Origin: an uncultured Pseudobdellovibrionaceae bacterium
Lineage (GTDB): Bacteria; Patescibacteriota; Minisyncoccia; Moranbacterales; GCA-2747515
Length of the DNA stretch: 64,000 nucleotides
Assembly: GCA_964463705.1 (NCBI GenBank)
Contig: CAYXCH010000006.1
Coordinates: forward strand, 32,576-96,575
Reading direction: 5' to 3'
A model generated the notes under the pieces. The model was not told where the DNA came from and did no database searches. It was given only the letters and a program-made list of their open reading frames with translations. Positions 30,036 through 64,000 of the stretch are shown in pieces. The first letter of the stretch is position 1. Each line of letters starts with the position of its first letter. The translations under genes and the position numbers were made by a program.

Positions 30036-32345
30036 TTAATCAAAATCTGATGATTTGCACTTACGATCCGGCACCGGCGCAACAATAATCTTACGGTCCA
30101 TTTCCTCGTAATATTTTCGAACACCACGCTCCCACGCCGTATACTGCGGATCTCTTTCCGGATGTTTTGGCGGCGGACCGAGCGGATTTTCTCTATCAAC
30201 ATAGTGCAAAATGCTGTGCGCGTTAATAAACTTACGCCGCTTGACATCCCGATCCGCATCCTCGCACGCATCGGATTTAAGGCACCAAGTATTCTTTTTC
30301 TTAGAAATGCGACATACTTTTTCCTCCACCATTTCCGGTACAAATCCATCCCGCAGCGGGCGACGCTCCGTATCATCATCTGTCGTCTTCGCATCAGACC
30401 CTTCCGCCTCATCATCACCATAATCCGGAAAATGCTCAATGCGCGTCCCGTCCAACGATTGTTCCAAAAACGCTCGCCAAATCGGTGCCGCTACGACGCT
30501 TCCCGACGCACCATCTCGCATTGGCCGGTTATCATTATTCCCCACCCATACACCAACCGCCAATGAGGGTGTATATCCCATTGTCCACGCATCACGAAAA
30601 CTGTTTGTCGTTCCCGTCTTTGCTGCAACAGGACGATCATCAAACCGCAACGGATTATTTGCGGAAAACGCCGGAACGCGGTACTTGTTGGTGGATAGTG
30701 CCTCATCAAGCATTGCAACATATTCCTCCTCCACTACACGCACCCCCTCCGTATCATGCCACTGTTCCACCACTTCTCCCTCTTTATCCTCAATACGCAA
30801 AATCATTGTCAGCGGCTTACGCACTCCGCCGTTTGCAAGGGTTGCATAGGCATGAGTATGATTTAACAGTGTTACTTCTCCACCACCCAACACCAGTGAC
30901 AACCCGTATCGCCGCGGATGCTCCAATCCCGTCACCCCCAGCTCTCGCGCAAGACGTGCCGCCTCCGACACACCAACCAAATACAACGCCTTTACCGCCG
31001 GGATATTCAAGGACATCGCCAACGCGCGCTTTACCTTTACCGGACCGCGAAATGTCCCATCATAGTTTCGCGGCTCATACGGATCTTCCCCGTCATCAAA
31101 TCGTGTTCGCACATCATACAGAATTGTATCCGGTGAGTACCCCTTACGAAACAACCCCAAATATACATAGGGTTTAAACGAGCTTCCCGGCTGTCGAAAG
31201 CGCATGGCAACATTAACATTTCCATCAATCTCGCGACTAAAATAGTCTACACTTCCCACCATCGCCAATACCTGTGCCGTCCGAGGATCAATCGCTACCA
31301 ATGCGGCATTTTCGGCATTATACCGAGCATTACGCTCTACCCCTTCACGAACGACCGTCTCGGCCCGGCGCTGTGCCTCCATATCAATCGTCGTAATCAC
31401 TCGCATCCCCGCCTCCTCCAACTCTTGTTTTCCGTAGCGCTTCTCCAAATACTCACGGATCGCCATCACAAAATGTGGCGCCCGAATCTGTGTTCGTTGC
31501 GGTGTTATCTTTTCTAACGTATCAATCGCCTTTGCCTCATCGGCACGTTGACGAGTAATGTATCCCAACTCCGCCATCTGATCCAGCGCATAGTGCTGAC
31601 GTCGTACAAGACGCTCCAAACGAGCCGGAGATGTGTTATACGGAGAATAGCGGGACGGTTGTTGCGGAAGCGCCGCCAGCAATGCCGCCTCATCCAGCGT
31701 CAGCTCTCGTGCATGTTTACCGAAAAATGTCTGCGCCGCCGCTTCAATTCCATATGCGTTGGACCCATACGGAATTTCGTTAAGGTACATTGCCAAAATT
31801 TCATCTTTGGTAAACTTACGCTCCAACTCCATTGAAAGAATAACCTCCTTCAGTTTGCGCTCATATGTACGCTCACTGGTCAATAACGTATTCTTAATCA
31901 ACTGCTGTGTAATCGTTGACCCTCCACTGCTGCGACCACCAACCAACTGCGGAAACACTTGGGAAATTGCCGCACGAAGAATTGCGGTAATCTTAACACC
32001 GTGATGTTTGTAAAAATCTTGATCCTCCAATGCAAGTGTCGCATAGCGCACAACTGTTGGAATTTCTTCAAATGGAATAATTGTTCGCTTCTCCTCTCCG
32101 TGAATATCATACAATAGTACCGTCCCCGTCCGATCATAAATTTTCGTAGACTCCACCACCTTCAATGCGGTAATCTCATCAGCGGGCGGCAAGTCTTTTG
32201 CGTAATACCAAAACACTCCCGCCGCTCCCACAAGCGCAATCACGCCGAGTGTCAATATACCGTATGTCGCAATTCGCCCTATCGTTCGCCACATTGTCCG
32301 CCGCGATGCCCGCCGTCGCTTTCGCATATGATATCGTGCACCCAT
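30036..32345 (-). CDS. mrcA: Class A penicillin-binding protein (bifunctional glycosyltransferase/transpeptidase, PBP1A-like)
   Basis: N-terminal TM, GT51 motifs (LEDQDFYKHHGV, GGSTITQQLIKN), and transpeptidase motifs (PGSSFKP, SLN, KTGTT). Confidence 0.9.
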   Translation of the reverse strand: MGARYHMRKRRRASRRTMWRTIGRIATYGILTLGVIALVGAAGVFWYYAKDLPPADEITALKVVESTKIYDRTGTVLLYDIHGEEKRTIIPFEEIPTVVRYATLALEDQDFYKHHGVKITAILRAAISQVFPQLVGGRSSGGSTITQQLIKNTLLTSERTYERKLKEVILSMELERKFTKDEILAMYLNEIPYGSNAYGIEAAAQTFFGKHARELTLDEAALLAALPQQPSRYSPYNTSPARLERLVRRQHYALDQMAELGYITRQRADEAKAIDTLEKITPQRTQIRAPHFVMAIREYLEKRYGKQELEEAGMRVITTIDMEAQRRAETVVREGVERNARYNAENAALVAIDPRTAQVLAMVGSVDYFSREIDGNVNVAMRFRQPGSSFKPYVYLGLFRKGYSPDTILYDVRTRFDDGEDPYEPRNYDGTFRGPVKVKRALAMSLNIPAVKALYLVGVSEAARLARELGVTGLEHPRRYGLSLVLGGGEVTLLNHTHAYATLANGGVRKPLTMILRIEDKEGEVVEQWHDTEGVRVVEEEYVAMLDEALSTNKYRVPAFSANNPLRFDDRPVAAKTGTTNSFRDAWTMGYTPSLAVGVWVGNNDNRPMRDGASGSVVAAPIWRAFLEQSLDGTRIEHFPDYGDDEAEGSDAKTTDDDTERRPLRDGFVPEMVEEKVCRISKKKNTWCLKSDACEDADRDVKRRKFINAHSILHYVDRENPLGPPPKHPERDPQYTAWERGVRKYYEEMDRKIIVAPVPDRKCKSSDFD

Positions 32346-32504
32346 AAAAACACCTCGTTAACTTACACCCGTATTTTACCGCACTTAAAGTAATTGCGCC
32401 AATTATTCTCTTTCCGAAAAATTGTTATTTGCAAAGAGCAGAGTTCGGAAAATAAAACGCATTCTATTTATTGGCAATGTGCCACGACAAACAAAAATCC
32501 ATCG

Positions 32505-33338
32505 TTATTTCAAAACACTGTCAATGGCCTGCATATACTTTTCCGGCTGACCAATAAAATCAAAATGTCCGCCTTTTACTGAACAAAATCCATCCAAATA
32601 TCCATCTTCATACGCTTTCCCTAATTTCTTTTGAATTTTATCCATAAAAAAAGTAAGATCATCTGCGCCGGCAATGACTGAAATTTTAATTCCTTTTTCT
32701 TTAAGTTCTTTCATAATTTCCATAATGTCAAATTCGGCCAATTCGCTTACTTCATCATATGATCGGCGTGGATTTTTTTGAATATATTTAGCCGATTCTT
32801 TTATCATTCTATAGCCGTCAGCTGGATAATTAACAATAAATTTTAATAAATCCATCACAAATAAACCGAATAATTTAAATTTATTTTCCCATCCGGTTAA
32901 GCCGGCCGGATTTAATAAAACTATATTATTAAATTTTTCCGGATATTGTCTGGCTACCAGCAACAAATTTATAGCCCCTTCCGAATAACCGATTGCATCC
33001 GTCTTCTCAATCTGTTTTCTCTCCAATATTGAAAGTAAAGAAACCGCCTTACGGAGTTCCTCTGTTTCTTCCTTGCTTCCATCAATTCTAGCATGACTCA
33101 ACGATACCACTCGACGTTTTTGTTTAGCCAATTCTTTTAACGGTTTTTCTATAGAATCGATTGTTATTGACCAGCCGGGAGCAAAAAACACCGGAATATC
33201 CGTTTTCATTTCGTCGGGAACAATATCAATGGTGTCAATTGTTCCCCAGGTAAATTCTTCTTGTCCTTTAAATACCTTTAATTCAATTTCTTTTCGGCCC
33301 TTTTCCGAAAAATCAATATTATCCCTTGGTGAAAACAT
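32505..33338 (-). CDS. Alpha/beta-fold hydrolase
   Basis: GYSEGA nucleophile elbow (GxSxG) with downstream Asp/His candidates. The local GC is markedly lower than in neighbouring genes. Confidence 0.6.
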   Translation of the reverse strand: MFSPRDNIDFSEKGRKEIELKVFKGQEEFTWGTIDTIDIVPDEMKTDIPVFFAPGWSITIDSIEKPLKELAKQKRRVVSLSHARIDGSKEETEELRKAVSLLSILERKQIEKTDAIGYSEGAINLLLVARQYPEKFNNIVLLNPAGLTGWENKFKLFGLFVMDLLKFIVNYPADGYRMIKESAKYIQKNPRRSYDEVSELAEFDIMEIMKELKEKGIKISVIAGADDLTFFMDKIQKKLGKAYEDGYLDGFCSVKGGHFDFIGQPEKYMQAIDSVLK

Positions 33339-33774
33339 AATTAATAAAGTTATCTACAACTGTTTTAGAAATCTCTCTGCCTATTCTGTTACAGAATTTT
33401 TCATTTTAATGGTTAAGTCAATACTATCTTAAAAGCTGTTTATTCCCCCGCTTACAATAAGGGATTGGCATTTGAATTTGAGTGCAAGAGCACATCCGTT
33501 TACGAAATAAGTTTTCATAGCAAACTCAATCACAAAGCGATGACTGCTTTACAAAGTAAAATACTTATTTAGAGCTTGTCAACTATTTGTATTTTTGATG
33601 TGTCGCTTCTATCACAAAATACACTTTGGATAAAAACAAGTTGTACAGAATTCCACTACACTTTTGCTTCACTCTGTTGCCATCTTAGCGCATCATTAAA
33701 AACATATTATATTAAGCATTACAACCCCGTACGCATTTCGAAATCTGAACGAGTACTTTATTTGTTGCACTATA

Positions 33775-34260
33775 TTACCTTACATCAACAATCTCAATTT
33801 CTATAACATTAGAGGTCTCAATCTCTCCAGTTTGTGCATTTCTGGCGGTAATGAATACTTTGTGCGGTGATGATTTTTTCGGGAATTTACTGGCGTGTAT
33901 TTTTATATAGTTGCTTTCATTTTTTTGTATCAAGCGACCACTAATCGGTATTTTATTTCCATTATCATCAATAATGTACACGATAAAATCACTACCGCTC
34001 GGAAAAGATTTACTTGTTCTAAAGTAAACTGTTTCGGAGTTTGTATACTTGCTGCCGGCACGAATAAAAAACGTGCCTTCATTTTCTACTTCATGACTTG
34101 CGGAAACGTTATATTGTCGCTTAGGCTGCGCACTTTTCTCTGTTTGCTCTTCTATCCATTCTATTGCTACAGGAATAAGATTTAATACTCCGACAATAAC
34201 CATAGATAATATGATGAGTACTATAATTCCAACAATGTCGCCTTTATTGTTCGTAGTCAT
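33775..34260 (-). CDS. TM-anchored small protein with beta-rich extracytoplasmic domain, hypothetical
   Basis: N-terminal TM (IVGIIVLIILSMVIVGVL). AT-rich codon usage. The neighbouring gene is 13 nt downstream on the same strand. Confidence 0.4.
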   Translation of the reverse strand: MTTNNKGDIVGIIVLIILSMVIVGVLNLIPVAIEWIEEQTEKSAQPKRQYNVSASHEVENEGTFFIRAGSKYTNSETVYFRTSKSFPSGSDFIVYIIDDNGNKIPISGRLIQKNESNYIKIHASKFPKKSSPHKVFITARNAQTGEIETSNVIEIEIVDVR

Positions 34261-34272
34261 GGATGTTTGAAG

Positions 34273-35049
34273 TTAAGAAGAAATGATTGCGTAGGTAAAA
34301 TATGATATTGTAATACCTATGGCGAGCATTGAGACTATATAAAACCATGTAAGCCACTTCCTTTCAAGGAAAAATAATAATGTGTTTATTAGTCCGGACA
34401 CAATGGCAACAATAATTGCATATATGCCTATATATTCATCAGGAGTTCCAAATAAAAATATCAAGCCTATGCCAATACAAACAATTGGAAACAATGACAT
34501 GAGAATCAAAAAAGTGACACCCTCTTCGCCGATAAGTCCCTTAATGGTTTTATCTTTGGAAAGTAGAACAATAAGAAATTCTCTTAGAGAATACCGTATT
34601 GACGGCAATTGCCTTACCGGGTTGTTGTAGAATGGATGATATAGCAAATAAATAGAGAGAATTGTACTTATTATCATAGCAAGCTGTTCCAATATAAGTA
34701 CCGCCATGAAAATATCTTGCCCACCATTAAGTGAGTATTCCTCCTTAATCACAAAAAAGAACGGTATCATTAAAAAATTAAGCACTACCATTAAGATTAA
34801 TGCCAGCCTTTGTCCATAAAGAATGCCGTATATGGCATAAGTGTCCAAATACAACCAAACAGCTGAAAACGGAATATACAGTAAAAGTGCTATGAGGCAA
34901 CCAAAGTCTGTACACCCGTTATAAAACTTGAGTATTGACGGTACCACCTGCATAAAAACAACCAGACCCACACATGCTATCACCAACGCCTGCCAAGGAC
35001 GTCCCGACAGAAATTCTTGTCGTATAATATTGTTTACACCCATACCCAC
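34273..35049 (-). CDS. Polytopic membrane protein, hypothetical
   Basis: Seven to eight hydrophobic helices. No recognisable motif. Confidence 0.45.
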   Translation of the reverse strand: MGMGVNNIIRQEFLSGRPWQALVIACVGLVVFMQVVPSILKFYNGCTDFGCLIALLLYIPFSAVWLYLDTYAIYGILYGQRLALILMVVLNFLMIPFFFVIKEEYSLNGGQDIFMAVLILEQLAMIISTILSIYLLYHPFYNNPVRQLPSIRYSLREFLIVLLSKDKTIKGLIGEEGVTFLILMSLFPIVCIGIGLIFLFGTPDEYIGIYAIIVAIVSGLINTLLFFLERKWLTWFYIVSMLAIGITISYFTYAIISS

Positions 35050-35426
35050 AATACTATTTTAGTTATTCAATATTTTGGCTAACAAAATAACACAAGTCAT
35101 ATATCGTCTTTCACGCAATCCATTATACCATACTATTAAAGTATTCAGTTGGTGTGTTTGAGGTAAACATATTTTTTATTTTTTGTAAAAAATACGATTT
35201 ACATTGTATACGGCATGCTCTTTTAGAGAGCTTTACTGTGCAACGTTTAAAAAATTTTACATAACTTAAATCACCTAAAATCTTTATTCTATGATCTTCA
35301 TATACTGCCATTTTAAACATTTACGAAAGCCTTGGCATTTAATCTAAAACCAACATTAAAAACTATTTAAGTGCTCCTGTCGCCGCACTCATATTTTGCC
35401 ACACTTGCAGTAACGCGCCATTGTGT

Positions 35427-37145
35427 CTACAGTATGAAGCGAGATTTTACTTGCTCCCACACTTCCCGTGAGTAAAATTCTGGTCGCATAATTTTATCCT
35501 CATCCAACAATCCCCATTTTTTCAAAATCCGCGCGGAATCAATATTGACTCCTGATACATAAGCATACTTATCTGCCCCAAATTTTTCCAATTCCTTCAT
35601 CACACGCAATTGCTCCAAATACACCAAATCCTTGGAACTCGTAGGTTCTCCACCGGATAGTGAACGAGCTCCACGGAACAGTCGCAATGTACGATTAACC
35701 GCCAGGCGCATCAATCGATCTCGCTCTGCGCGTGCAGACGTTGCCGAAACCGCATTGGTGGACTCCTGTTTATCTATTGACTGAACAGCATTTTTATAGA
35801 ATGTCTCCACGCACTGCGCAAAATCTCCACCGGTACTGCGCACGGCAAGCGCTCGCACATAATTTGACGCCGGCAATTGACGATAACCAAACAACTCCCG
35901 AGAAATTTTATCCTGGTTGTACATTGCGCCCGCTTCGGCATACAGCTCCGATCTATCCCCGCGAATATCGCCAAATAACTTAAGAGGTAAATGCTTTCTA
36001 TTTTCACTTTGCAATACATGCCCCTCCACTTCATGCGCACACGCCACGGAAACCGCCTTGGCAATGGAAATTTTTCTGCACGGAATTTTAATAACTTTTT
36101 GCACACCATCTACAAACATTCCTCCACCATCGGTTACCACCACTTGCCACTTGTTATCCGATGCCGGCCCCGGACGATTTACGGTATAATACTTGGAATC
36201 CTCCATGCTCTTGACACCGTACTGTTCCAACACAAATTCCACCATACGCACCACCTCCTCACTATCAACAGTTTCCGCAAATAATTTTTCCGGATCAATA
36301 CCTCGCTGACGGATACGCTCTTCTCGCATGCTATCGTTTTGATACCGTTCGGCATCAATATAATCGGCAAAATCAAGAAGTTCTTTGGTTAAAGCCGAAT
36401 ATATGCCTGACACATCCGGAGAATCACTCGCCCCGAACACAAACCGATCGTATCGTGCGGTATTGCGATCTGATTGCTTGGGTGGTGATTGAGTAAAGCG
36501 CTTATCTGCAGCTATTGCCATTTGCGTCCGTGCAATCAATTCATTGACACGCTGTAGATACAGTATTAAAAAATCCTTCTTAATTGAATCGTTCTCTCCG
36601 GGCAATTGTGTCAATTCGTTTTTTATACGCTGCTTAAACGCCCGCAAGTCCCGCAATTTTTTCTCGGTTTCATCCGGATTAAGCACATAGTGCACCCGCT
36701 CTGTTACACCGGCATCCAGAGAAAACGTCTCTCCACGTTGCAACTGCTGCTGAAACCGCTCTACACTATCATTACAAAAGTATTGCATGGAACGATTTCC
36801 CAACTCCTTTATTTCCGTGATATCAGTCGTTGACATCTTCCCAATGCTGCGCGTGATTTCTTCCGTCACTGATTGCGGAGAATTGCCCAACAACTTCACT
36901 CCGGTTACCTCCGTGAAATCCTTCCGTCCGTGATCAGTTAAAAAGTACCCGGTATAAAAATCCGTCGTTACTACCGGGACTTTGTATATTTCATACAACT
37001 CATCGCCAAGTCTGTTTTCATACGCTATAAACTCTACGCGCTCAGACTCAGATAACCGATACACCTCTTGATTTTCCAATTTTTGAACCGACCCAGCAAT
37101 TGTTTCCGGTGGACGCCGCGGGTAGAGTGATTCTTTTTCGTACAT
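35427..37145 (-). CDS. Putative zinc metallopeptidase (HExxH) of a family often linked to ATP-grasp ligases
   Basis: CAHEVEGHV contains an HExxH motif with a downstream Glu (ELYAEAG). It lies head-to-tail with RimK-like genes on the same strand. Confidence 0.5.
   Translation of the reverse strand: MYEKESLYPRRPPETIAGSVQKLENQEVYRLSESERVEFIAYENRLGDELYEIYKVPVVTTDFYTGYFLTDHGRKDFTEVTGVKLLGNSPQSVTEEITRSIGKMSTTDITEIKELGNRSMQYFCNDSVERFQQQLQRGETFSLDAGVTERVHYVLNPDETEKKLRDLRAFKQRIKNELTQLPGENDSIKKDFLILYLQRVNELIARTQMAIAADKRFTQSPPKQSDRNTARYDRFVFGASDSPDVSGIYSALTKELLDFADYIDAERYQNDSMREERIRQRGIDPEKLFAETVDSEEVVRMVEFVLEQYGVKSMEDSKYYTVNRPGPASDNKWQVVVTDGGGMFVDGVQKVIKIPCRKISIAKAVSVACAHEVEGHVLQSENRKHLPLKLFGDIRGDRSELYAEAGAMYNQDKISRELFGYRQLPASNYVRALAVRSTGGDFAQCVETFYKNAVQSIDKQESTNAVSATSARAERDRLMRLAVNRTLRLFRGARSLSGGEPTSSKDLVYLEQLRVMKELEKFGADKYAYVSGVNIDSARILKKWGLLDEDKIMRPEFYSREVWEQVKSRFIL
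35631..35738. repeat. 108-nt direct repeat, copy A, inside the metallopeptidase-like gene
   Basis: About 96% identical to 38110..38217 (4 mismatches). Confidence 0.8.
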
Positions 37146-37158
37146 ACAACTTTAGTTA

Positions 37159-38049
37159 TCAACTGGAGAAGCTTTTATGAAAACCGGCAAGAATTTCTTG
37201 AACTATGTTTTTATTGCTATGTGCAATTTGAAATCCCTTGAAATTGGCTGATAGGTTAATTTCTATCACCCTGAACCGCTTATTGCTGTCAACGATAATA
37301 TCAACCCCCACATAATCACACAACAATTTTTGCGCAACGTTTTCGGCAAATTTAAACATTTTCACGTCATAATATGATTCAATTGAAGCGCCTTGCGAGA
37401 AGTTATGCTTCCAATCACTGGTTGTGCCCGACCTTTTAATGGCCCCAATGGTCTTTCCGGCACACACTATGACACGGTAATCACAAGTAGTTGGTATAAA
37501 CTCTTGTAAAATAATGCTCTTATCTGGATTTTTGGCAACATAGTCAACTAAATCTTGCTCGGTACTCATTTTATGTACGCTAAGACCGAAGCTTCCCTCA
37601 ACATCCTTTAAAATAATTGGAAACGACCAAGGAATAACCTTCAACAAGTATTTTGAATTTTGGCTTACAGGATGCAAGGTGTCAATTGTCGGTATATTAT
37701 ATTTCAAAAAAAGTTCATATTGTGAAAATTTATCAAAAAATGGATTTTTTGCAAAAAAATCACCATTTACCACCGGAACAGAATTTTCTCGTAAAAATAA
37801 TATCAAACGATATGTTGAAATTCTTTTTTTGATAAGTGTATTATCAACCACCTTGTCATGACAACGCACAATAGCGCCGTTAAATTGTGAAATATCCAGT
37901 AACCGCTGACGATAAATCAGTTTATTTTCATAAAAAAACAGGTTATCAACATTTATAAAAACAAACTCCCAATTCAACCTCAACGCCTCTTCTTTTATGG
38001 TTTTTACTGAGTGAAATTTTTCATTAAAACCAAAATATATAACTTTCAT
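37159..38049 (-). CDS. RimK-like ATP-grasp ligase
   Basis: DYRVIVCAGKTIGAIKRSGTTSDWKHNFSQGA matches the RimK DIR..VG...A..R....DFRSN...GG signature. Confidence 0.65.
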   Translation of the reverse strand: MKVIYFGFNEKFHSVKTIKEEALRLNWEFVFINVDNLFFYENKLIYRQRLLDISQFNGAIVRCHDKVVDNTLIKKRISTYRLILFLRENSVPVVNGDFFAKNPFFDKFSQYELFLKYNIPTIDTLHPVSQNSKYLLKVIPWSFPIILKDVEGSFGLSVHKMSTEQDLVDYVAKNPDKSIILQEFIPTTCDYRVIVCAGKTIGAIKRSGTTSDWKHNFSQGASIESYYDVKMFKFAENVAQKLLCDYVGVDIIVDSNKRFRVIEINLSANFKGFQIAHSNKNIVQEILAGFHKSFSS

Positions 38050-38058
38050 ATATTTTAC

Positions 38059-38316
38059 TTAATCCTCAAATCTAACCGAACACCTACCTATACTCACCAT
38101 TTTACAGTACTTGGAACTTGTAAGTTCTCCACCGGATAGTGAACGAGCTCCACGAAACAGTCGCAATGTACGATTAACCGCCAGGCGCATCAATCGATCT
38201 CGCTCCGCGCGTGCAGATTCTGAAAGTTCGCAAACGTCCTGATTTTTTAATTGTTCTACCGACTCCTTCACCATATCTGGCTGTCTTTGCGGATACAGTA
38301 ATAAGTTCTCTAGCAT
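38059..38316 (-). pseudogene. Internally deleted remnant of a paralog of the 35427..37145 gene
   Basis: The N-terminal ~37 aa are homologous to the N-terminus of the 572-aa protein (LYPqRqP...SVeqLkNQ...LSES). The sequence then jumps directly to a near-identical copy of its residues ~455-490 (ARAERDRLMRLAVNRTLRLFRGARSLSGGE). Confidence 0.5.
38110..38217. repeat. 108-nt direct repeat, copy B
   Basis: About 96% identical to 35631..35738. Confidence 0.8.
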
Positions 38317-38331
38317 AAATATTTCAACAGA

Positions 38332-39261
38332 TTATTTCAACTTGCTCTTGATAAGCTCTACAATTTCATCACTCATATCAACTCCAACAGCGTCAAGGCA
38401 ATGTTTGTACAATCCCGGACGTCCATTTTCATCAATAATCTTATATCCTTCATCGGTAGCGATAAAATCAAACCCTATAATATCTTTTCCGATCGCTTGT
38501 TGTGCTTTTACAGCAATATGTGCCAACTCTTCACTAACAGGTGCCGGTACCGTCTTTTGCCCGCGACCGTCCTGTTTAAGCGGATCATAAATTTTCCAAT
38601 CTACTTCATCTGATAATAACGGTTTGCGATACCCGAATAATGCCCGTCCGTTACACACCACCACCGAAATCCATCGTGACAAATCATTTTGATAGTACTT
38701 TTCTACCAAAAACTGCTGTTTAGCACCACTGAATCCCTGTACATATTCTATGCAACTTTGTAATTCATCAAATTTATCAAAACGCATAATACCAATTCCC
38801 CATCCACCGAAACGTGGCTTAAGCAACACATCACCGCCAAACGTATCAAAAACTTTGTGCAATCCGTCAATGTCACCACTGCGAATCAATGCAAAATCAC
38901 CTACCGGTAGACCTGCCTTTTTGAGCCTCGTATGTGCGAGAAACTTATCATTTGTTATACGCACACTCTCTCCTGTATTGATTACCGCTACATCAGCACC
39001 CATCACATCCAACATATGACAAAAGTAATTATCCGCTCTCCAATCAGACGGTCGTACCGTATCATGCCAAAAATAAACATCCAAATCATTTAAACACACA
39101 TCACCAACATACACTTTATTGTTGATAATGACTCCGTTGCGAAAGTCTGCCTCCACCAAATCACAATTCGTAGCGGCAACAATATCACGCTTTATGTGCT
39201 CAATATATTCGGGGGTAAAAATTCCCTGAACTGATTTATGAAATCCTATACGCTTTTTCAT
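38332..39261 (-). CDS. ATP-grasp superfamily ligase (RimK/GshB-like)
   Basis: LKPRFGGWGIGIMRFDKFDEL ... ISVVVCNGRALFGYRK pattern of the ATP-grasp fold. The start is probably MKKRIGF. Confidence 0.6.
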   Translation of the reverse strand: MKKRIGFHKSVQGIFTPEYIEHIKRDIVAATNCDLVEADFRNGVIINNKVYVGDVCLNDLDVYFWHDTVRPSDWRADNYFCHMLDVMGADVAVINTGESVRITNDKFLAHTRLKKAGLPVGDFALIRSGDIDGLHKVFDTFGGDVLLKPRFGGWGIGIMRFDKFDELQSCIEYVQGFSGAKQQFLVEKYYQNDLSRWISVVVCNGRALFGYRKPLLSDEVDWKIYDPLKQDGRGQKTVPAPVSEELAHIAVKAQQAIGKDIIGFDFIATDEGYKIIDENGRPGLYKHCLDAVGVDMSDEIVELIKSKLK

Positions 39262-40087
39262 ATCGTTTGAGTATATGATTAATAATATGGTTTGCAACAT
39301 TAATTCCGGTCGCCGACTGAAATGCTTCCCATTGCGGGGGAATATTTACTTCCAATACCAATGAATCACTACCACGTTTGATTAAGTCAACACCCGAAAT
39401 ATCATATCCAAACAACTTATGTGCTCGTAATGCCAGCGCCTTTTCCTCTTGTGATAAGTCATACTCCTCAACCTTTCCGCCGAGGGACGCATTGGTGCGA
39501 AAATCTCCTTCATTAGCATACCGCTTAATCGCCCCGAGTACCATATCACCAACCACAAACACACGGATATCGTAGCGAAGCGGAACATATTCCTGAGCCA
39601 AATACCCTATCGGATGTTCTCGCAAAAACTCTAAGGCCTGTTCTTTCGTTTCGTATTTGTTAACACCCTGTCCTTTCTGTGCTTGTTCTGGCTTCAAAAT
39701 AATTGGTGTATCTAACTTAGACAAAACTCGCTTCCACTGTTTCCAGCTTCTGGCATAAACAGTTTTCGGATGCGGAATATTATTTAACTTAAACTGTAAT
39801 GCTTCATAAACCTTCGTAGGAATATACGAACTGGCAAGCACCGTATCAATAACCAATTTATTCTTTATATGTAAATTATAAGCAAGTAACTGTGCAAAAA
39901 CAACAGATTGATTAAATCCCCTGAATATATAGATATCGTGTTGAAAAAATTCCTCCTCGTCCATCGTATCAACGGAAAATGCGATATCCGATATATTATA
40001 TACCACAACCGCAAACCCTCGGCGTGATATTTCTCGCACCAACGATTTTGTGTTAAATGTGTCCGGACCGATAATTGCGAATTTCAT
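39236..40087 (-). CDS. RimK-like ATP-grasp ligase
   Basis: ILKPEQAQKGQGV and YDIRVFVVGDMVLGAIKRYANEGDFRTNASLGG, the classic RimK signature. Confidence 0.75.
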   Translation of the reverse strand: MKFAIIGPDTFNTKSLVREISRRGFAVVVYNISDIAFSVDTMDEEEFFQHDIYIFRGFNQSVVFAQLLAYNLHIKNKLVIDTVLASSYIPTKVYEALQFKLNNIPHPKTVYARSWKQWKRVLSKLDTPIILKPEQAQKGQGVNKYETKEQALEFLREHPIGYLAQEYVPLRYDIRVFVVGDMVLGAIKRYANEGDFRTNASLGGKVEEYDLSQEEKALALRAHKLFGYDISGVDLIKRGSDSLVLEVNIPPQWEAFQSATGINVANHIINHILKRYEKAYRIS

Positions 40088-40096
40088 AAAATATTT

Positions 40097-41512
40097 TTAC
40101 TTACTCACATCAACCAAAAACTTGTAAAGGTTGCGTTTTCCGATAATCATCGGATATTTGAGCTTACTGCGGTCTACAATATTAACTTTTGCCACAATGC
40201 GTACTCCATCCATAATGAACGCCAGTTTTACAACCGGGCGAATCGTTGCGCCACTGGAAGAAAACACAACGGCAACATCTTCCAACTCCGGAATACACTG
40301 CCCGTATCGCTGCATAATACGCGACTTAATTTCACCCTCTCGTTCCGGCGATAACACACTATCGCCGTAATCAATACGATCAAATGCATCCAGTGTTTCA
40401 CCAAATCCCAACTCCCGTGCCAGCGCACGATCAATGGAGGTGGAGTATGCACCGGTGTCAATTTTTGCACTAACGGTGCGTTCGGTACCGTTTCGTCCAA
40501 TCAATGTTACCGTTTCTATGGATCCGATTACACGCTTTCCGGTTGTCTGCTCCACCGATTCCTCAACTTCTCCGCCAAAGAGGTCTTTACCGACACGAAC
40601 ACCGTGCGCAACACTCTTGATTGTTACACCGCTTACTCGTTCCAATCGCTCTTTTAACGGTGCCATATTGGCAATCTGAATAGACAACCCGGGTCGTGCA
40701 TTTAACTCCAAAAATACCGGTCCGCGCTCACGATCAATTACCACATCCGCTCCCAAAAATCCCAACCCGCTCGCCTCCTGCGCCTTCACCGCCAATGTCA
40801 AAATCTCATCCCATTGCGGAATTTTAATACCGGAAAGTAACATACGTGTCCCCGGCGCATATTCCACAATCCGCCCCTTTCCTTGAATTGCCGTAGTTGT
40901 TACTCCCGTTGCCATATCAATTCCGACACCAACACCTCCAAGCTGTAAATTCGCCTTCCCTCCACTCTCACGTGTAGGAAGCCGCAACATTGCCATTACC
41001 GGAACACGATTGTACACGATAATGCGCAGATCCGGAATTCCCCGATATGCATAGGGACGGAACAATTTCAACAGCGTTAACCGCTCTTCAATCAATACCG
41101 TGTCGGATACTCCGGATAACGCAAACGCTCCTTCCACAATATTGTAGCAGTGTGCGGCAATATCTTGTGCGGTAACAATACTCCCATCCGCCTTCACCCA
41201 AGCGTCATGCATTCCCTTCTTTCGCCCGAATACCACCACAATACCGCCACCGCCAAACCCGCGATTTGGCTTGATAACAAATGATTCCGGAAGACTGGAG
41301 TAATCAAATGTACGGACATCGTCATAAGTGCGCAGCGTGGCGATGCGTGTCGGCGTCGGCACACCGGCGCGCGATAATACGTCCTTGCTGAGAATTTTAT
41401 CATCGGCAATACTGCGTGCGGCGGATAAATTCAACGGTCGCACATACGTTAAGTTGCGCGCATTCATTCCCAGGATCCGGTGCGCGTTTCGCACCATCCG
41501 TAATATGTTCAT
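40097..41512 (-). CDS. RimK-related ATP-grasp ligase fused to a C-terminal retropepsin-like (DTG) domain
   Basis: ATP-grasp part: FVIKPNRGFGGGGIVVV ... DLRIIVYNRVPVMAMLRL...GGKANLQLGG. C-terminal part: TVSAKIDTGAYSTSIDRALARELG, with an aspartyl-protease D-T-G-A motif. Confidence 0.7.
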   Translation of the reverse strand: MNILRMVRNAHRILGMNARNLTYVRPLNLSAARSIADDKILSKDVLSRAGVPTPTRIATLRTYDDVRTFDYSSLPESFVIKPNRGFGGGGIVVVFGRKKGMHDAWVKADGSIVTAQDIAAHCYNIVEGAFALSGVSDTVLIEERLTLLKLFRPYAYRGIPDLRIIVYNRVPVMAMLRLPTRESGGKANLQLGGVGVGIDMATGVTTTAIQGKGRIVEYAPGTRMLLSGIKIPQWDEILTLAVKAQEASGLGFLGADVVIDRERGPVFLELNARPGLSIQIANMAPLKERLERVSGVTIKSVAHGVRVGKDLFGGEVEESVEQTTGKRVIGSIETVTLIGRNGTERTVSAKIDTGAYSTSIDRALARELGFGETLDAFDRIDYGDSVLSPEREGEIKSRIMQRYGQCIPELEDVAVVFSSSGATIRPVVKLAFIMDGVRIVAKVNIVDRSKLKYPMIIGKRNLYKFLVDVSK

Positions 41513-61479: not shown

Positions 61480-61480
61480 G

Positions 61481-61551
61481 TCGGGCCGCCGAGAATTGAA
61501 CTCGGGCCACACGCACCCGAAGCGTGCGTACTACCGTTATACTACGGCCCG
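61481..61551 (-). tRNA. tRNA-Pro (anticodon CGG)
   Basis: On the minus strand: CGGGCCG acceptor, anticodon loop UUCGGGU, T-arm CCGAGUUCAAUUCUCGG. No encoded CCA. Confidence 0.8.
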
Positions 61552-61859
61552 TACAGCATTACGGTACCACACTATCTATAACTTGTCTATATTTTACCTA
61601 AACTTACCTGTTCCTGACTTAATATCAATCAAACATCACAAAAATTCACTGAGACAGTATCGGAGTCAAAAGGGTATGTTGGGTTGTTTTAGTACTCTAT
61701 TCTGGTGCGTTTATTTTACCAAGCTCGGACTTGATTTCAAAACAATTAAGTAGCGGTGCGGGTAAAGCCCGCGCTTTTATCTCGCGCGTCCTAACGGTAT
61801 GCGCGAAACAACTCAGCCACACCCATCGCCTCCACTATCGCTCCGGCGAGCCACAAAAA

Positions 61860-62066
61860 TTACAACGGACTTTTAATATTCTTCAACTTCGGATTTGTCA
61901 CTTGTGTATAGATTTGTGTTGTCCATATATTGCTGTGTCCCAGCAATTCTTGTACATATCGCACACCTGTTCCATTTTCTAATAAATGAGTAGCAAATGA
62001 ATGTCTCAAAGAGTGAAAAGTTGCAGGTTTGATCACCTTCGCTTTTGCTAAACTTTTCCGAAACAT
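61860..62066 (-). pseudogene. C-terminal fragment of a tyrosine recombinase/integrase (XerC/D/integron-integrase-like)
   Basis: Only 68 aa, carrying the catalytic box [39 protein letters not shown] (HxxR...H...Y). The N-terminal ~250 aa are missing. Confidence 0.65.
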
Positions 62067-62453
62067 TTTTTGGAGTGATGTTGTTGTGAGATTTCCTCCA
62101 TGATTGGAAGCAAAAATTTAATCGCATTTAATGCAAGATTAATTGTTTGGGAAGACTGCTTTCGTCTGTGTTTATCAAGCAAAAAATCTTCAATTGCTTT
62201 TTGTTTATTTTTGATTCCAGCTTTTTAGAAAATCTGATATACTCTTTTATGTAAAGTAAATATGCTTTGCGAGTTTTTGGAGAATAGTTGCAAAGTCGCA
62301 ACAGTCGGTTGGTTTTCTTTAAAATTTTATCCGTATTAAAATGGTATTAAGAGTTTGTATAACATACAAATTTTTGTTATAACTACAGTATAAAGTTCGG
62401 ATAGAAACTAGTTATATGCCATATTACTCGGGCAAAATTAATCAATTCAAATT

Positions 62454-62954
62454 ATGTCAGTAGAAAATTCATCAGGTTCATTTGAACAAGAACCACAACA
62501 AGATCCTATAATTCAAGAAATCTTGGGTGATTTATACAAGCCAGAAAAAATTCTCGCTAAAAAAGTTGAGCAAGTCAGTGAAGGTGAATTTAAAATTACT
62601 TTTGAGTTTCCTCCCTACGATCGCACTATTGAACCATTAGATCACGTTTCAATGTCTCAAATGCACGAGGCGGTTTTGGATGGTGCCCTATGTGCTATTG
62701 GACAAGTACTAAAAAATCAATCTATTAAGACAAATCTCGATTACCAAGAGTTCATGGATAGGCGACAAGATATAATCTACTATCGTGAGAATTTTTCCTT
62801 TCGTAAAATGTTAAAAGCAAATGAGTCTACTGAATTGATATTTCAAATAGTAAATGTAGAAGAAAAGAAATTACGTCGCACTTTTTACTCAGCTACAATC
62901 AAAATTGACGGGTTTATGCGTGGTGAAATAGAAGCATTACTCGAAAAAGTCTAA
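62454..62954 (+). CDS. Hypothetical protein (166 aa) in low-GC island
   Basis: Isolated ORF with AT-rich codon usage. No motif recognised. Confidence 0.4.
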   Translation: MSVENSSGSFEQEPQQDPIIQEILGDLYKPEKILAKKVEQVSEGEFKITFEFPPYDRTIEPLDHVSMSQMHEAVLDGALCAIGQVLKNQSIKTNLDYQEFMDRRQDIIYYRENFSFRKMLKANESTELIFQIVNVEEKKLRRTFYSATIKIDGFMRGEIEALLEKV

Positions 62955-63178
62955 TAAATTTTCCTAAATAAAACGCTAAAGGCACATTGCACTCTCACTC
63001 CGCTATCGCTCTGTTCGGCTCGCCTAACAAGCATATGCGGTTCACTCGTTGCACTTCACTTTCCTATATTCTTCTTCACTAAAACTACGAAGAACATCGC
63101 CCATACTGAAACATTATGTGGGGAGACTGCAAGTCAACTGACCGAAGGGGCAGTTTTAAAACAATCTTTCATGTCTAT

Positions 63179-63738
63179 TTAGGACAGGATTTCGTCTAAC
63201 AATTCAGGAATTTCTTGCTTAGGCAATTGACTTCCAAAGTGACCTCTATCTTCAAATATTAAGAATTTAGCATTTAATCCTTTTGCATTTTCTTCACCAG
63301 ATGCAAACGGAACCCAATTATCATCTTTGGAATGTAGAACGACAAATTTATCACAATGATTTTTAATTTTCTGAAAATCATATGGTCCTTCTTCATAAAA
63401 ACCATTCGTATTGGCTTTCCTGTTTTTTTCAGAAACAGATGGATTATTTGCAGCAATGAGAATTACCTTTTTACTTTTTTGTCTTGTGGTTGTTTTTGTA
63501 GCCAACGTAAAATAGCAACTCCTCCTCTGGAATGACCGATAAGAATACTATCTTTATCTGGATTAAGTTTATCAATTTCATTAATCCATTCACTCAATAC
63601 GGGATCACTAGGTTTTGGTAATTCGGGTGCAAGACATTTTATCCCTCTGTTTTTCATTTCACTAATAAGCCAAGGATACCATTTTTGTGATGGGTTTGTG
63701 TCTTTGCCGTGTATCAAAATTACATTTAATTCGTTCAT
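63179..63738 (-). pseudogene. Frameshifted alpha/beta serine hydrolase (YdeN/RBBP9-like)
   Basis: Two overlapping ORFs, 63463..63738 and 63179..63505. The first has the LIGHSRGG nucleophile elbow. The second carries the Asp and His of the triad (HSKDDNWVP, RGHF). Confidence 0.55.
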
Positions 63739-63919
63739 AAGATATGATAAATTGGTTTATGTAAAGTTAATTTAAGAAATTCTATCCTCCTATTTTTTAG
63801 GAGGATCGTTTTAACATTGCGTGTGTATAGTATAACATCAGGATTGTGAGAAATTTTCGACTGAAAGGAGAAAATTTGGGAGAGTGCCTCGGTCCGGCGT
63901 CCGCATCGCCAAAAGAAAA

Positions 63920-63937
63920 GTCGGCAAAATACCGACA
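63920..63937 (-). terminator. Hairpin plus U-tract downstream of the edge tRNA
   Basis: On the minus strand: GUCGG, UAUUUUG, CCGAC, then UUUUCUUUUGG. Confidence 0.4.
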
Positions 63938-63947
63938 AGTCAAATTC

Positions 63948-64000
63948 TGGTGCCGCGGGCGGGACTTGAACCCGCACAGCGCGTGGGCGCCAGAGGATTT
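63948..64000 (-). tRNA. 3' portion of a class II tRNA (Leu or Ser) with encoded CCA. Continues beyond the window.
   Basis: On the minus strand: ...CUCUGGCGCCCACGCGCUGUGCGGGUUCAAGUCCCGCCCGCGGCACCA. It shows a long variable arm, the T-arm and an acceptor 3' strand. The anticodon lies outside the window. Confidence 0.6.

Follow-up and report, generated by a model that had tools for sequence, protein, structure and literature searches.

A probable remnant of an integron-like gene-capture platform beside a tRNA gene in a Moranbacteria-like genome

Integrons are a main route of bacterial gene capture. Xer enzymes resolve chromosome dimers at one double-stranded site, dif. Modules can also be flanked by inverted pdif sites, which are double-stranded, 28 bp long and recombined by the XerC/XerD of the host. 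The integron integrase is considered to have arisen from Xer recombinases by gain of one extra domain (PMC4792948), and the IntI-specific additional domain is placed around patch III (PMC9668308, citing Messier & Roy 2001). In the pdif modules of Acinetobacter plasmids, genes are bracketed by Xer-type sites and occur in varied contexts (PMC7399989). The Xer-related recombinases of candidate phyla have been placed in a subgroup called 'Cand' (PMC8138268). A survey from 2026 revealed that 97% of contigs with integron-type recombinases were not called complete integrons, and suggested a 'novel attC' as a possible explanation (PMC13323075). Our literature search on integrons in Patescibacteria/CPR found no relevant paper, which is not proof that there is none; the integron-like type of platform that we describe here appears to be undescribed in Patescibacteria.

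The window is the whole stretch of DNA that was analysed, 64,000 nucleotides long. The original prediction placed a low-GC block between tRNA-Pro(CGG) and the 3' end of a class II tRNA, and this was confirmed, with every feature it named found where it had been placed; the class II tRNA is tRNA-Leu(UAA). The block extends over about 2 kb (approximately 61860-63890). GC is 0.34 at 61950-63899, and the other 1950-nt windows have a mean of 0.46 (sd 0.036), which gives z = -3.3; overall, the window has 46% GC. The interval contains the following features.

61480-61551, minus strand: tRNA-Pro(CGG), native left flank (ARAGORN; Rfam tRNA, 61.9 bits)
61552-61859, no strand: spacer of about 300 nt with near-native GC, outside the low-GC block
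61860-62301, minus strand: tyrosine-recombinase pseudogene, Xer/IntI-like, of 'Cand'/XerA type (Pfam and tblastn)
62302-62411, plus strand: attI-like region, AT-rich, with motifs GTATAAC / GTTATAAC, between the recombinase start and the first cassette
62412-63021, plus strand: cassette 1, own attC missing, with a 166-aa ORF inside at 62454-62954
63022-63119, plus strand: degenerate attC-like site between cassettes 1 and 2
63114-63836, minus strand: cassette 2, inverted, an RBBP9/YdeN-type serine hydrolase pseudogene (PF06821)
63830-63882, minus strand: putative 3' arm of an attC-like site upstream of the hydrolase (read from the letters)
63883-63919, no strand: GC-rich stretch, a candidate degenerate 5' arm or native DNA
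63920-63936, minus strand: predicted intrinsic terminator of the tRNA-Cys/tRNA-Leu unit, GTCGGTATTTTGCCGAC + TTTTCTTTT (terminator scan)
63948-64000, minus strand: 3' part of tRNA-Leu(UAA), class II, native right flank, CCA end at 63948

The window was extended with the ENA contig L001, which differs from it at 4 of 11,547 bases. On the extended contig, the whole tRNA-Leu gene corresponds to 63948-64036 (ARAGORN; 11495-11583 in L001), and beyond it are tRNA-Cys, UDG, DHH and RbfA, all with native GC. The window has one further low-GC region, at about 31.7-40 kb. In the relative L038, tRNA-Pro directly follows the 3D-domain gene. The synteny comparison proposed in the original prediction showed that four relatives keep the flanking genes, namely the 407-aa gene/3D gene on one side and UDG-DHH-RbfA-tRNA-Arg on the other, and that the block is absent from this interval in all four. 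The interval is occupied by DUF2202 in L038, a Fur/ZnuABC set in L036 and an HD-domain gene in L017, and it is empty in L040 (158 nt). Traces of DUF2202, of the HD-domain gene and of the relatives' small ORFs were sought in 61400-64100, and none was found. Named homologues of the host 407-aa protein are mostly from Moranbacteria, with one from Minisyncoccota. The gene content of the host (a 583-aa IF2 and an L19-HHH fusion) is suggestive of Patescibacteria. Judging from sequence comparison, the tRNA-Pro/tRNA-Leu spacer is a hypervariable spot of a Moranbacteria-like genome. A foreign origin of the block is supported: it is low in GC, has its closest homologues (84-89% aa identity) on low-GC Patescibacteria contigs, and is absent from the four relatives.

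The spacer to the left of the block has a terminator-like hairpin on the plus strand (61755-61775), and GC is 0.415 for 61552-61949. We searched the spacer for DNA matches to all fetched loci and for protein matches to the relatives' cargo, and found neither. Its first ~50 nt are loosely similar, as judged by eye, to the region upstream of tRNA-Pro in L038. An abrupt change of GC, such as that seen at the block, could also come from an assembly or binning artefact that joined a low-GC contaminant to a Moranbacteria contig; cassette arrays are repeat-rich and often break assemblies, and many homologue-bearing contigs are short. However, both junctions are spanned by other contigs. The JGI contig L004 crosses the left one (3D gene, tRNA-Pro, recombinase remnant and the start of the 166-aa gene), and the Logan contig L002 crosses the right one, running from the recombinase remnant through the hydrolase to tRNA-Leu. 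L001 covers the whole and none of its four differences falls inside the block, where it is identical to the window. An artefact is thus extremely unlikely.

The left part of the block is derived from a tyrosine recombinase. A 68-aa C-terminal piece had been recognised in the original prediction, and this ORF (61860-62066, minus strand) indeed matches Phage_integrase (PF00589) at positions 114-169 of 172 with E = 3e-18. However, the remnant is larger than this piece, covering 61860-62301 in three frames (62128-62301, 62048-62182 and 61863-62123). The N-terminal SAM-like piece lies at 62128-62301 (PF13495, E = 9e-6), and the C-terminal catalytic piece at 61863-62123 has 87 residues and an in-frame stop. 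About 100 central residues, the first catalytic Arg among them, are deleted. In tblastn with the intact 268-aa recombinase of L012, residues 180-266 matched at 57% identity and residues 8-45 also aligned, and residues ~81-179 had no match. NCBIfam gave XerC, integron integrase, XerD and XerA as the best matches. The IntI-specific domain was looked for in intact relatives, this part being deleted from the window copy. In L022 and L012, 15 residues stand in place of the 58 in VchIntIA (2a3v, IntI4), and the match is split in two. The match of the intact relatives to TIGR02249 reached 225 against a cut-off of 265, and model positions ~182-236 were skipped. Since the IntI-specific domain is absent and the score is under the TIGR02249 cut-off, the enzyme is not an integron integrase by the standard definition. 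The intact relatives exceed the cut-off of the XerA model NF040815, and the best solved-structure match to the recombinase is XerA 5hxy, in a single stretch that is collinear across the whole protein. Besides the window copy, the copy in L026 is also a pseudogene, which argues against an essential role for those copies. In L012, L022/L024, L026 and the window, the recombinase gene lies next to cassette arrays and points away from them; the arrays were located via one cassette gene, encoding the 166-aa protein, and the link between recombinase and arrays is drawn from those loci.

The attI-like region matches L022, L012 and L026 in position and layout. All four recombinase-proximal junctions read A-G|TTA (CTAGTTATATGCC in the window), and the attC-like sites read AAC-G|TTA. 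By analogy, we infer that 62302-62411 would act as attI. Cassette 1 begins with G|TTATATGCC (G|TTATAT), exactly as this cassette does in L021, and the 45 nt upstream are conserved in L021, L027 and L028. At its tail, ~45 nt derived from the end of a different cassette are joined on, and the tail motif CACTCCGCTATCGCTC is also found ahead of an attC-like site in L023. The 166-aa ORF is intact. It was described as an orphan in the original prediction, a label that does not hold because it has 29 homologues with 50-84% identity. Pfam and NCBIfam profiles were searched with the 166-aa protein and none matched. Its AF2 model has a pLDDT of 89.5, and Foldseek with this model found SAV606, Rv0098/FcoT and FabZ (probability 1.0, TM 0.6-0.7). 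The protein is thus predicted to have the hot-dog fold of the thioesterase / dehydratase superfamily, a sheet of five or six strands around a long central helix. Elsewhere in Patescibacteria, the hot-dog gene occurs in arrays of single-ORF cassettes with an attC-like palindrome after each. The cassette is found in many different neighbourhoods, and four of the arrays with this gene adjoin a recombinase of this type.

A strict structural scan (R''-L''...L'-R', at most one mismatch) detected sites only in Patescibacteria loci with the 166-aa gene. Every ORF is followed by one, always on the coding strand. L026 has six such sites, L014 has four, and L041 has three, with the hydrolase between the first two. 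A site follows the stop codon by 16-129 nt and precedes the next start by 25-174 nt. The consensus is RYYYAAC...GTTRRRY, and the sites are 84-208 nt long, with a single site per ORF in direct orientation. Pairing in the L helix reaches 95%, and 6 of its 10 pairs show compensatory changes, in sites that were partly selected for L complementarity. A spacer of 5 nt was built into the first structural scan and into covariance model R1, and long sites received low scores. A relaxed scan and reading by eye added sites in L041 and L031 that have a 4-nt spacer. We also searched Rfam at a permissive threshold with the window end and four array loci. The palindromes match no family there, so they are not a known RNA family. 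Furthermore, in 13 cassettes with both ends known, we compared R'' with R' boxes at 7 variable positions. On average, R'' agreed at 5.46 positions with the R' that opens its own cassette (the 5' start), at 3.44 with the R' belonging to the same site and at 3.29 with unrelated boxes. R'' was closer to its own 5' start in 12 of the 13 paired comparisons and tied in the remaining one. Such complementarity is characteristic of cassettes that are exchanged as circles at G|TT.

The site at 63022-63119 in the window is a degenerate member of this class. Its R'' is GCCTAAC (63022-63028), L'' is at 63030-63039, L' at 63098-63107, the spacer is GAAAC, and R' is ATTATGT (63113-63119, with G>A). It is 78% identical over 97 nt to an intact site in L012-L014 (E = 4e-15). 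Model R1 matches nothing else in the window (15.4 bits, E = 1.5), and this site is also the unique best match of a 3'-arm weight matrix (14.6 vs 1.3 for the runner-up). Its L' is mismatched and it has lost its fold: z values for single-stranded folding were +0.4 and -0.5, compared with -5 to -5.8 for intact sites.

The hydrolase of cassette 2 is split over two ORF pieces, 63463-63738 and 63179-63505, which match PF06821 at profile positions 2-83 and 74-163, respectively. This verifies the frameshifted alpha/beta hydrolase of the original prediction. The break is one A missing in an A-run (T5 on the plus strand, 63468-63472), where intact homologues with 87-89% DNA identity have A6 or A7. The repaired protein of 186 aa has intact 186-aa homologues at 89, 85, 82 and 78% identity over 100% of the length, one of them named RBBP9/YdeN. 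It retains the motifs GHSRGG, DD and GH, which would form a Ser-Asp-His triad. In L041 the hydrolase lies between attC-like sites, and in L031 one such site follows it. The 3' UTR of the window hydrolase aligns to both loci until R'' CACATAA and diverges exactly at AA|C. As aligned, the junction of cassette 2 is at the canonical crossover position, G|TT / AA|C. Upstream of the hydrolase, the arm at 63830-63882 has a central CCCAAATTT motif, L' CTCACAATCC, a TGAT spacer and R' GTTATAC, and it is 89% identical over 28 nt to the 3' arm of the site at 1476-1571 in L025. A 5' arm matching this 3' arm was sought and is not recognisable, and the right end of cassette 2 is not reconstructable. The adjacent stretch 63883-63919 yielded no convincing L'' or R'' box, and a 5' arm is not reconstructable there. 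A fixed module of recombinase, hot-dog gene and hydrolase was also considered. The closest hydrolase homologues lie in unrelated neighbourhoods, and we therefore rejected this module; only the pairing of recombinase and hot-dog gene recurs.

The original prediction explained the block as an old integrative element inserted at a tRNA 3' end. An eroded prophage or genomic island that entered at the tRNA-Leu 3' end by its own tRNA-targeting integrase would agree with a block that starts ~60 nt past this end and holds a tyrosine-recombinase remnant. A direct repeat of the tRNA end was predicted near 61560-61860, and an exact 10-nt repeat, ATTCTGGTGC, is present across the tRNA end (63944-63953) and again within this range (61699-61708). 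With a probe limited to +/-10 nt of the tRNA end, a match of at least 10 nt arose in 3.5% of shuffles; with the whole tRNA as probe, however, such a match arose in 16% of shuffles, and gapped local alignment gave p = 0.40. The 10-mer is thus not significant, and it is all that came out of exact and gapped repeat searches with both tRNA ends, Leu and Pro, run with shuffle controls. In addition, the distal copy of ATTCTGGTGC is in near-native-GC DNA outside the low-GC block. L038, whose cargo differs, shares the ~17 nt that follow tRNA-Leu, and after them the window has a terminator hairpin of its own at 63920-63936. This indicates that no element DNA abuts the tRNA and that the tRNA end was not rebuilt by an element. 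Beside the terminator, the stretch CCGACAAGTCA[A/G]ATTC is kept in L038 despite the different cargo. The recombinase sits at the end of the block far from tRNA-Leu and is Xer/IntI-like, and the cargo genes are integron-type cassettes elsewhere. The block shares with tRNA-integrating islands and prophage remnants its place beside a tRNA 3' end, its foreign GC and the tyrosine-recombinase remnant, but its recombinase belongs to a different clade, its cargo is made up of cassettes, and it has no significant repeat. The lack of a significant tRNA-derived repeat and the intact native terminator argue that the block is not a tRNA-integrating element, an origin that we judge very unlikely. The foreign and eroding character of the block is upheld, with a recombinase pseudogene, a frameshifted hydrolase and a degenerate recombination site, whereas insertion targeted to the tRNA is not supported.

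The block was probably acquired by horizontal transfer and is probably what is left of an integron-like gene-capture platform that no longer functions. Its layout is a recombinase gene pointing left, the attI-like region, the hot-dog cassette, the degenerate attC-like site and the inverted hydrolase cassette. By analogy with integrons, the recombinase of the intact relatives would excise single-ORF cassettes as circles, and these may be inserted at attI or at other attC-like sites; strands would be exchanged at the G|TT of imperfect palindromes in folded form. In the window, the recombinase has lost ~100 residues and has a frameshift and a stop, the attC-like site has lost its fold, the hydrolase has a 1-nt deletion, and the hot-dog gene alone is intact. 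A foreign patch that entered a variable spacer by illegitimate or homologous recombination, carrying an ordinary Xer-type ('Cand') recombinase for chromosome resolution and palindromes that are terminators or REP/MITE-like repeats and play no part in gene capture, is unlikely. The type of the recombinase, without the IntI domain and collinear with XerA, would suit such a patch, as would the treatment of 'Cand' recombinases as Xer-related in a published classification (PMC8138268), the lack of an Rfam family for the palindromes, and the presence of the hot-dog gene in ordinary chromosomal contexts without palindromes in L010 and L042. However, terminators or MITEs would not give an R'' that complements the 5' start of its own cassette and not the neighbouring R', nor would they put the hydrolase breakpoint exactly at AA|C. 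They also would not yield strict arrays of one ORF and one site on one strand beside a recombinase in four loci, or spread the same cassette over many neighbourhoods.

The integron-like platform shares many features with classical integrons. In both, compact single-ORF cassettes form an array on one strand and the recombinase gene points away from it, each cassette ends in an imperfect palindrome whose boxes read RYYYAAC / GTTRRRY and whose inner L helix covaries, and one cassette is found in different arrays. The recombinase has the N-terminal domain PF13495 and a C-terminal SPL tail in both, and a G|TT crossover is also probably common to them, judging from the complementarity of R'' to the cassette's own start. 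Unlike classical integrons, however, the recombinase of the intact relatives has no IntI-specific domain and is under the TIGR02249 cut-off. The sites also differ in their asymmetric 2-nt / 4-5-nt spacer, in the inner motifs GGTTC, CACCCAAATTT and AAC[AT]T, and in an often three-way terminal structure; the hosts here are Patescibacteria, and the window copy is dead. The proposed site class can be described as 84-208 nt long, with RYYYAAC / GTTRRRY boxes, the 2/4-5-nt asymmetric spacer, and GGTTC and CACCCAAATTT motifs. The window, with its recombinase pseudogene and one or two degraded attC-like sites, also recalls the In0 and CALIN classes of degenerate integrons in IntegronFinder, but these are defined by the canonical IntI profile and attC model, and the recombinase here would fail the IntI test. 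The decay state of the window resembles remnants of sedentary integrons (PMC9024848). With archaeal XerA, XerC/D and 'Cand' enzymes the recombinase shares a collinear architecture without insertions, 5hxy as the best structure match, and a score that passes NF040815; it differs from Xer in that its gene is beside arrays of long palindromic sites and is pseudogenised in the window and in L026, which would be unexpected for an essential housekeeping enzyme. As in pdif modules, genes are bracketed by recombinase sites in varied contexts, but here the sites are imperfect palindromes of 84-208 nt in direct orientation, one per ORF, with a dedicated recombinase gene adjacent. The loci may represent an undescribed family of Patescibacteria platforms that combines an Xer/'Cand'-type recombinase without the IntI domain with its own class of attC-like sites, although we put the chances of this slightly below even.

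For this genome, the meaning is modest: one decaying horizontal acquisition at a tRNA-side hotspot, from which one hot-dog gene is apparently retained. If the platform family is real, it would be a concrete example of the 'novel attC' suggested in PMC13323075 and would form a natural step from Xer recombination to integrons. It could account for part of the metagenomic 'integron-type' recombinases without recognisable attC sites, and with it the origin of hairpin-site recombination could be tested in living systems. It would also extend cassette-based gene exchange to ultra-small, host-dependent bacteria.

The right end of the window carries a block of low-GC DNA between two tRNA genes (~61860-63890), as the original prediction had described. 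The GC content of 61950-63899 is 0.34 against a mean of 0.46 (sd 0.036) for other windows of equal size (z = -3.3), and both tRNAs could be placed. The tRNAs and the recombinase remains are as follows.

61480-61551, minus strand: tRNA-Pro(CGG), at the end of the window
61860-62066: 68-aa ORF, C-terminal piece of a tyrosine recombinase (PF00589, E = 3e-18)
62128-62301: 57-aa ORF, N-terminal SAM-like domain (PF13495)
63948-64036, minus strand: tRNA-Leu(UAA), a class II tRNA whose 3' part is the last 53 bases of the window

The second tRNA was identified on L001, a 30-kb ENA contig of the same locus, which shows 4 differences from the window over 11,547 shared bases, all outside the block. Past tRNA-Leu(UAA), L001 carries tRNA-Cys, UDG, DHH phosphoesterase, RbfA and tRNA-Arg in this order, with normal GC. 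An assembly chimera is unlikely as the origin of the block because its left junction is also present on a JGI contig (L004) and its right junction on a Logan contig (L002). The observation was confirmed with two corrections: the recombinase pseudogene is larger, and the 166-aa ORF has homologues. Outside the block, a plus-strand terminator-like hairpin at 61755-61775 (GGTGCGGGTAAAGCCCGCGCT followed by TTTAT) has no same-strand gene upstream and may be the leftover of a lost gene. The window has a second low-GC region at 31700-40200 (minimum 0.339, in the 1950-nt window starting at 32553), where the minus strand encodes an alpha/beta hydrolase, four RimK-like ATP-grasp proteins and three ORFs without a Pfam match; neither a recombinase nor an attC-like site was found in this region.

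Named homologues of the 407-aa host protein encoded beside the block are mostly from 'Candidatus Moranbacteria', with one from Minisyncoccota. Genomes found through this protein are titled 'Bdellovibrionales' or Pseudobdellovibrionaceae (CAZGWO010000099.1, CAZUWR010000002.1, CAZCNN010000004.1 and CAZKWX010000003.1; L016-L019), which is probably a taxonomic mislabel. Four relatives, at 53-70% identity, keep the flanks, namely the 407-aa gene and a 3D-domain gene on one side, then UDG, DHH, RbfA and tRNA-Arg. The interval between the flanks is different in each of them.

L038, 3D gene to UDG: tRNA-Pro, a DUF2202 gene, tRNA-Leu(UAA), tRNA-Cys
L036, 3D gene to UDG: ~5 kb with Fur and ZnuABC, then tRNA-Leu(CAA)
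L017, 3D gene to UDG: both tRNAs inverted, and an HD-domain gene
L040, 3D gene to tRNA-Leu: 158 nt

None of the four has the three genes of the window or a low-GC block at this interval. Content at this hotspot is hypervariable, and of the genomes compared only this one carries the block. The tRNA-Cys/tRNA-Leu(UAA) pair of L017 (11953-12116) is inverted relative to the extended window (63948-64148), L036, L038 and L040, and L036 carries tRNA-Leu(CAA) in place of UAA there.

It had been proposed that the block is an old, eroding integrative element inserted at a tRNA 3' end. That it is foreign and eroding was borne out; integration at the tRNA was not. A search for a direct repeat of the tRNA 3' end gave, at longest, the 10-mer ATTCTGGTGC (61699-61708 and 63944-63953). 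Matches of at least 10 nt occurred in 16% of dinucleotide shuffles when the probe was the whole tRNA plus 18 nt, and in 3.5% with a +/-10 nt probe. Gapped local alignment of the tRNA-Leu end was not better than shuffles (p = 0.40). Moreover, ~17 nt just downstream of tRNA-Leu (CCGACAAGTCA[A/G]ATTC) are conserved in L038 despite its different cargo, and in the window they run into a terminator hairpin (63920-63936), which indicates that native DNA extends past the tRNA end. The distal copy of the 10-mer lies outside the block, in DNA of near-native GC. A tRNA-integrating element was therefore rejected.

The intact 268-aa recombinase of L012, a locus with a homologue of the 166-aa gene, was aligned to the window DNA as a reference. 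The window keeps counterparts of its residues 180-266 (57% identity, interrupted by one in-frame stop) and, in another frame, of residues 8-45, but lacks residues ~81-179, among them the first catalytic arginine. Because N- and C-terminal residues of one recombinase both align there, 61860-62301 is a single pseudogene, oriented leftward. The 68-aa C-terminal piece noticed earlier is thus real, but it is not the sole piece.

Intact relatives of this recombinase (273 aa in L022, 268 aa in L012) resemble XerA; they pass the NCBI XerA model, named 'site-specific tyrosine recombinase/integron integrase', with 249 and 239 bits (cut-off 220), and are collinear with the XerA structure 5hxy among solved structures. 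With the integron-integrase model they reach 225, short of its 265 cut-off, and the match is broken in two, leaving out model positions ~182-236. Alignment to Vibrio IntI4 (2a3v) breaks in two as well, a 58-residue segment of IntI4 being matched by 15 residues in the relatives. This indicates that, in contrast to IntI4, they lack the IntI-specific domain, which is counted among the features that define integron integrases (PMC9668308). Xer-related recombinases of candidate phyla form the 'Cand' subgroup in a published classification, where cassettes are unmentioned (PMC8138268). The recombinase gene beside a six-cassette array in L026 (126-939) is split into two overlapping ORFs of 185 and 95 aa, so decay of this recombinase type is not unique to the window.

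The 166-aa ORF, previously called an orphan, belongs to a family: 29 homologues from Magasanikbacteria, Paceibacterota and unnamed metagenome contigs are 50-84% identical to it, and the motif HVSM.QMHEA is invariant among them. No Pfam or NCBIfam match was found for this ORF. Its AlphaFold model (pLDDT 89.5) predicts a hot-dog fold, and its nearest matches among solved structures are SAV606, the Rv0098/FcoT thioesterase and FabZ.

The two hydrolase ORFs cover profile positions 2-83 and 74-163 of PF06821. Adding one A to an A-run restores a 186-aa protein that can be aligned over its full length with intact 186-aa proteins (89, 85, 82 and 78% identity). Those with a named source belong to Parcubacteria or Patescibacteria; one bears the label RBBP9/YdeN. 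Two intact genes share 89% and 87% DNA identity with the window gene, and the frame is broken solely by the length of the A-run, which is A5 in the window but A7 and A6 in the intact genes (T5 on the plus strand, 63468-63472). This comparison places the predicted frameshift at a 1-nt deletion in the A-run.

Non-coding DNA of the block was compared with loci carrying 166-aa gene homologues, and 63020-63115 (97 nt) was 78% identical (E = 4e-15) to an intergenic element of L012, L013 and L014. The flanks of the 166-aa gene, read in 17 loci, have a recurring design: ...AAC-G|TTATAC... upstream, and ...GTATAAC-AA-(10 nt)-GGTTC ... CACCCAAATTT ... AACTT-(same 10 nt reverse-complemented)-TGAAC-GTTA... 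downstream. The downstream repeats resemble integron attC sites in their R''-L''...L'-R' plan with RYYYAAC and GTTRRRY boxes; no Rfam family was found for them. In a strict structural scan, sites with at most one mismatch were found only in 166-aa gene loci, all on the coding strand, and none in host sequences or in L031 to L035, the loci of the closest hydrolase homologues. Arrays with one ORF per unit have four sites in L014, six in L026, with the recombinase gene at its left end, and three in L041. When the arms of 14 distinct sites and the window copy are aligned, pairing in the L helix reaches 95%, six of its ten pairs vary on both sides, and the inner four R-helix pairs are invariant; this L pairing is supporting, not independent, evidence because the sites were picked partly for L complementarity. 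Folded as single-stranded DNA, intact sites have an R stem and an L stem separated by a 3-nt bulge, and the terminal structure is forked. Of four sites compared with shuffles, two folds are strong (z -5.0, -5.8) and two weak (z -1.3, -1.7).

The cassette reading was also tested independently of site selection. If cassettes, that is, mobile single-ORF units with their site, are circles cut at G|TT, R'' should complement the R' at the cassette's own 5' start; the R' within the same site is part of the next cassette and should not be complementary to it. In 13 cassettes, R'' matches its own start at a mean of 5.46 of seven variable positions, compared with 3.44 for the same-site R' and 3.29 for unrelated R' boxes. 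Compared pair by pair with the same-site R', the own start came out ahead for 12 of the 13 cassettes and level for one. Four recombinase-proximal junctions read A-G|TTA while attC-like sites read AAC-G|TTA, as would be expected if first-cassette junctions are attI x attC hybrids.

Two distant members of the 166-aa family (L010, 6001-6504, 66% identity; L042, 10001-10510, 56%) are in ordinary chromosomal contexts, and no attC-like sites were found around them. One follows a methionine aminopeptidase gene at the end of a ribosomal protein cluster and the other a triose-phosphate isomerase gene and a 283-aa ORF; these settings are possible sources of the hot-dog cassette. The 166-aa gene is near genes for glycyl-tRNA synthetase and peptidase M16 in L022 (3239-5848), with a recombinase gene, and in L042 (3886-10510), without one. 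This neighbourhood may be conserved in that lineage. On the short contigs L027 (1-1614) and L028 (1-1767), tRNA-Leu(TAG) lies ~110 nt after the 166-aa gene, and the same ~60 nt (TCCCCCTCTTCACCTTCTCTAAAACCCTGCATTCAAGC...) precede the gene and follow the tRNA, which suggests a tandem duplication or a circular molecule.

In the window, 110 nt of AT-rich DNA with GTATAAC and GTTATAAC motifs separate the recombinase pseudogene from the first cassette, which begins at G|TTATATGCC (62411|62412), a start identical to that of the same cassette in L021. This hot-dog cassette has lost its own long attC-like site and has instead ~45 nt from another cassette's tail (motif CACTCCGCTATCGCTC, also in L023), followed by that cassette's site.

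63022-63119: short attC-like site of the other cassette, decayed

Its R' is ATTATGT, L' has several mismatches, it no longer folds and it scores 15.4 bits with a covariance model, yet it is the sole match in the 64-kb window. Immediately beyond the 3' end of the recombinase pseudogene (61830-61843) is a 14-nt motif, CTCC[A/G]CTATCGCTC, that recurs just upstream of the R'' box of this site (62998-63011) and before an attC-like site in L023 (~1383-1400); with E = 0.08 in a pairwise search, it may be a cassette tail or chance. From 63114 rightward, the plus strand is the reverse complement of the hydrolase cassette. As far as the R'' box CACATAA, the hydrolase 3' UTR can be aligned to L031 and L041; it parts from them precisely at AA|C, where crossover canonically takes place. 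The other end of the cassette has GTATAAC (63830-63836), which together with the 46 nt that follow reads as an attC-like 3' arm in reverse complement. The circle of the hydrolase cassette may have been opened in R'' and integrated in reverse orientation; an exchange between inverted sites would lead to this arrangement equally well, and the far right end (63883-63919) is too degenerate to bear out either route.

We found no paper on integrons or attC sites in Patescibacteria in a literature search, which does not prove absence. In a 2026 study, IntegronFinder did not call a complete integron for 97% of the contigs with integron-type recombinase genes, and novel attC sequences were offered as one possible explanation (PMC13323075). 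The block is not an integron in the strict sense because its recombinase type fails the test for the IntI-specific domain; it resembles one in its way of working. Its layout, its homologies, the cassette signature, the exact breakpoint and the decay are established from the sequences. We consider it probable that the block is a decayed integron-like platform, whose recombinase would act on these attC-like sites, presumably as folded single strands.
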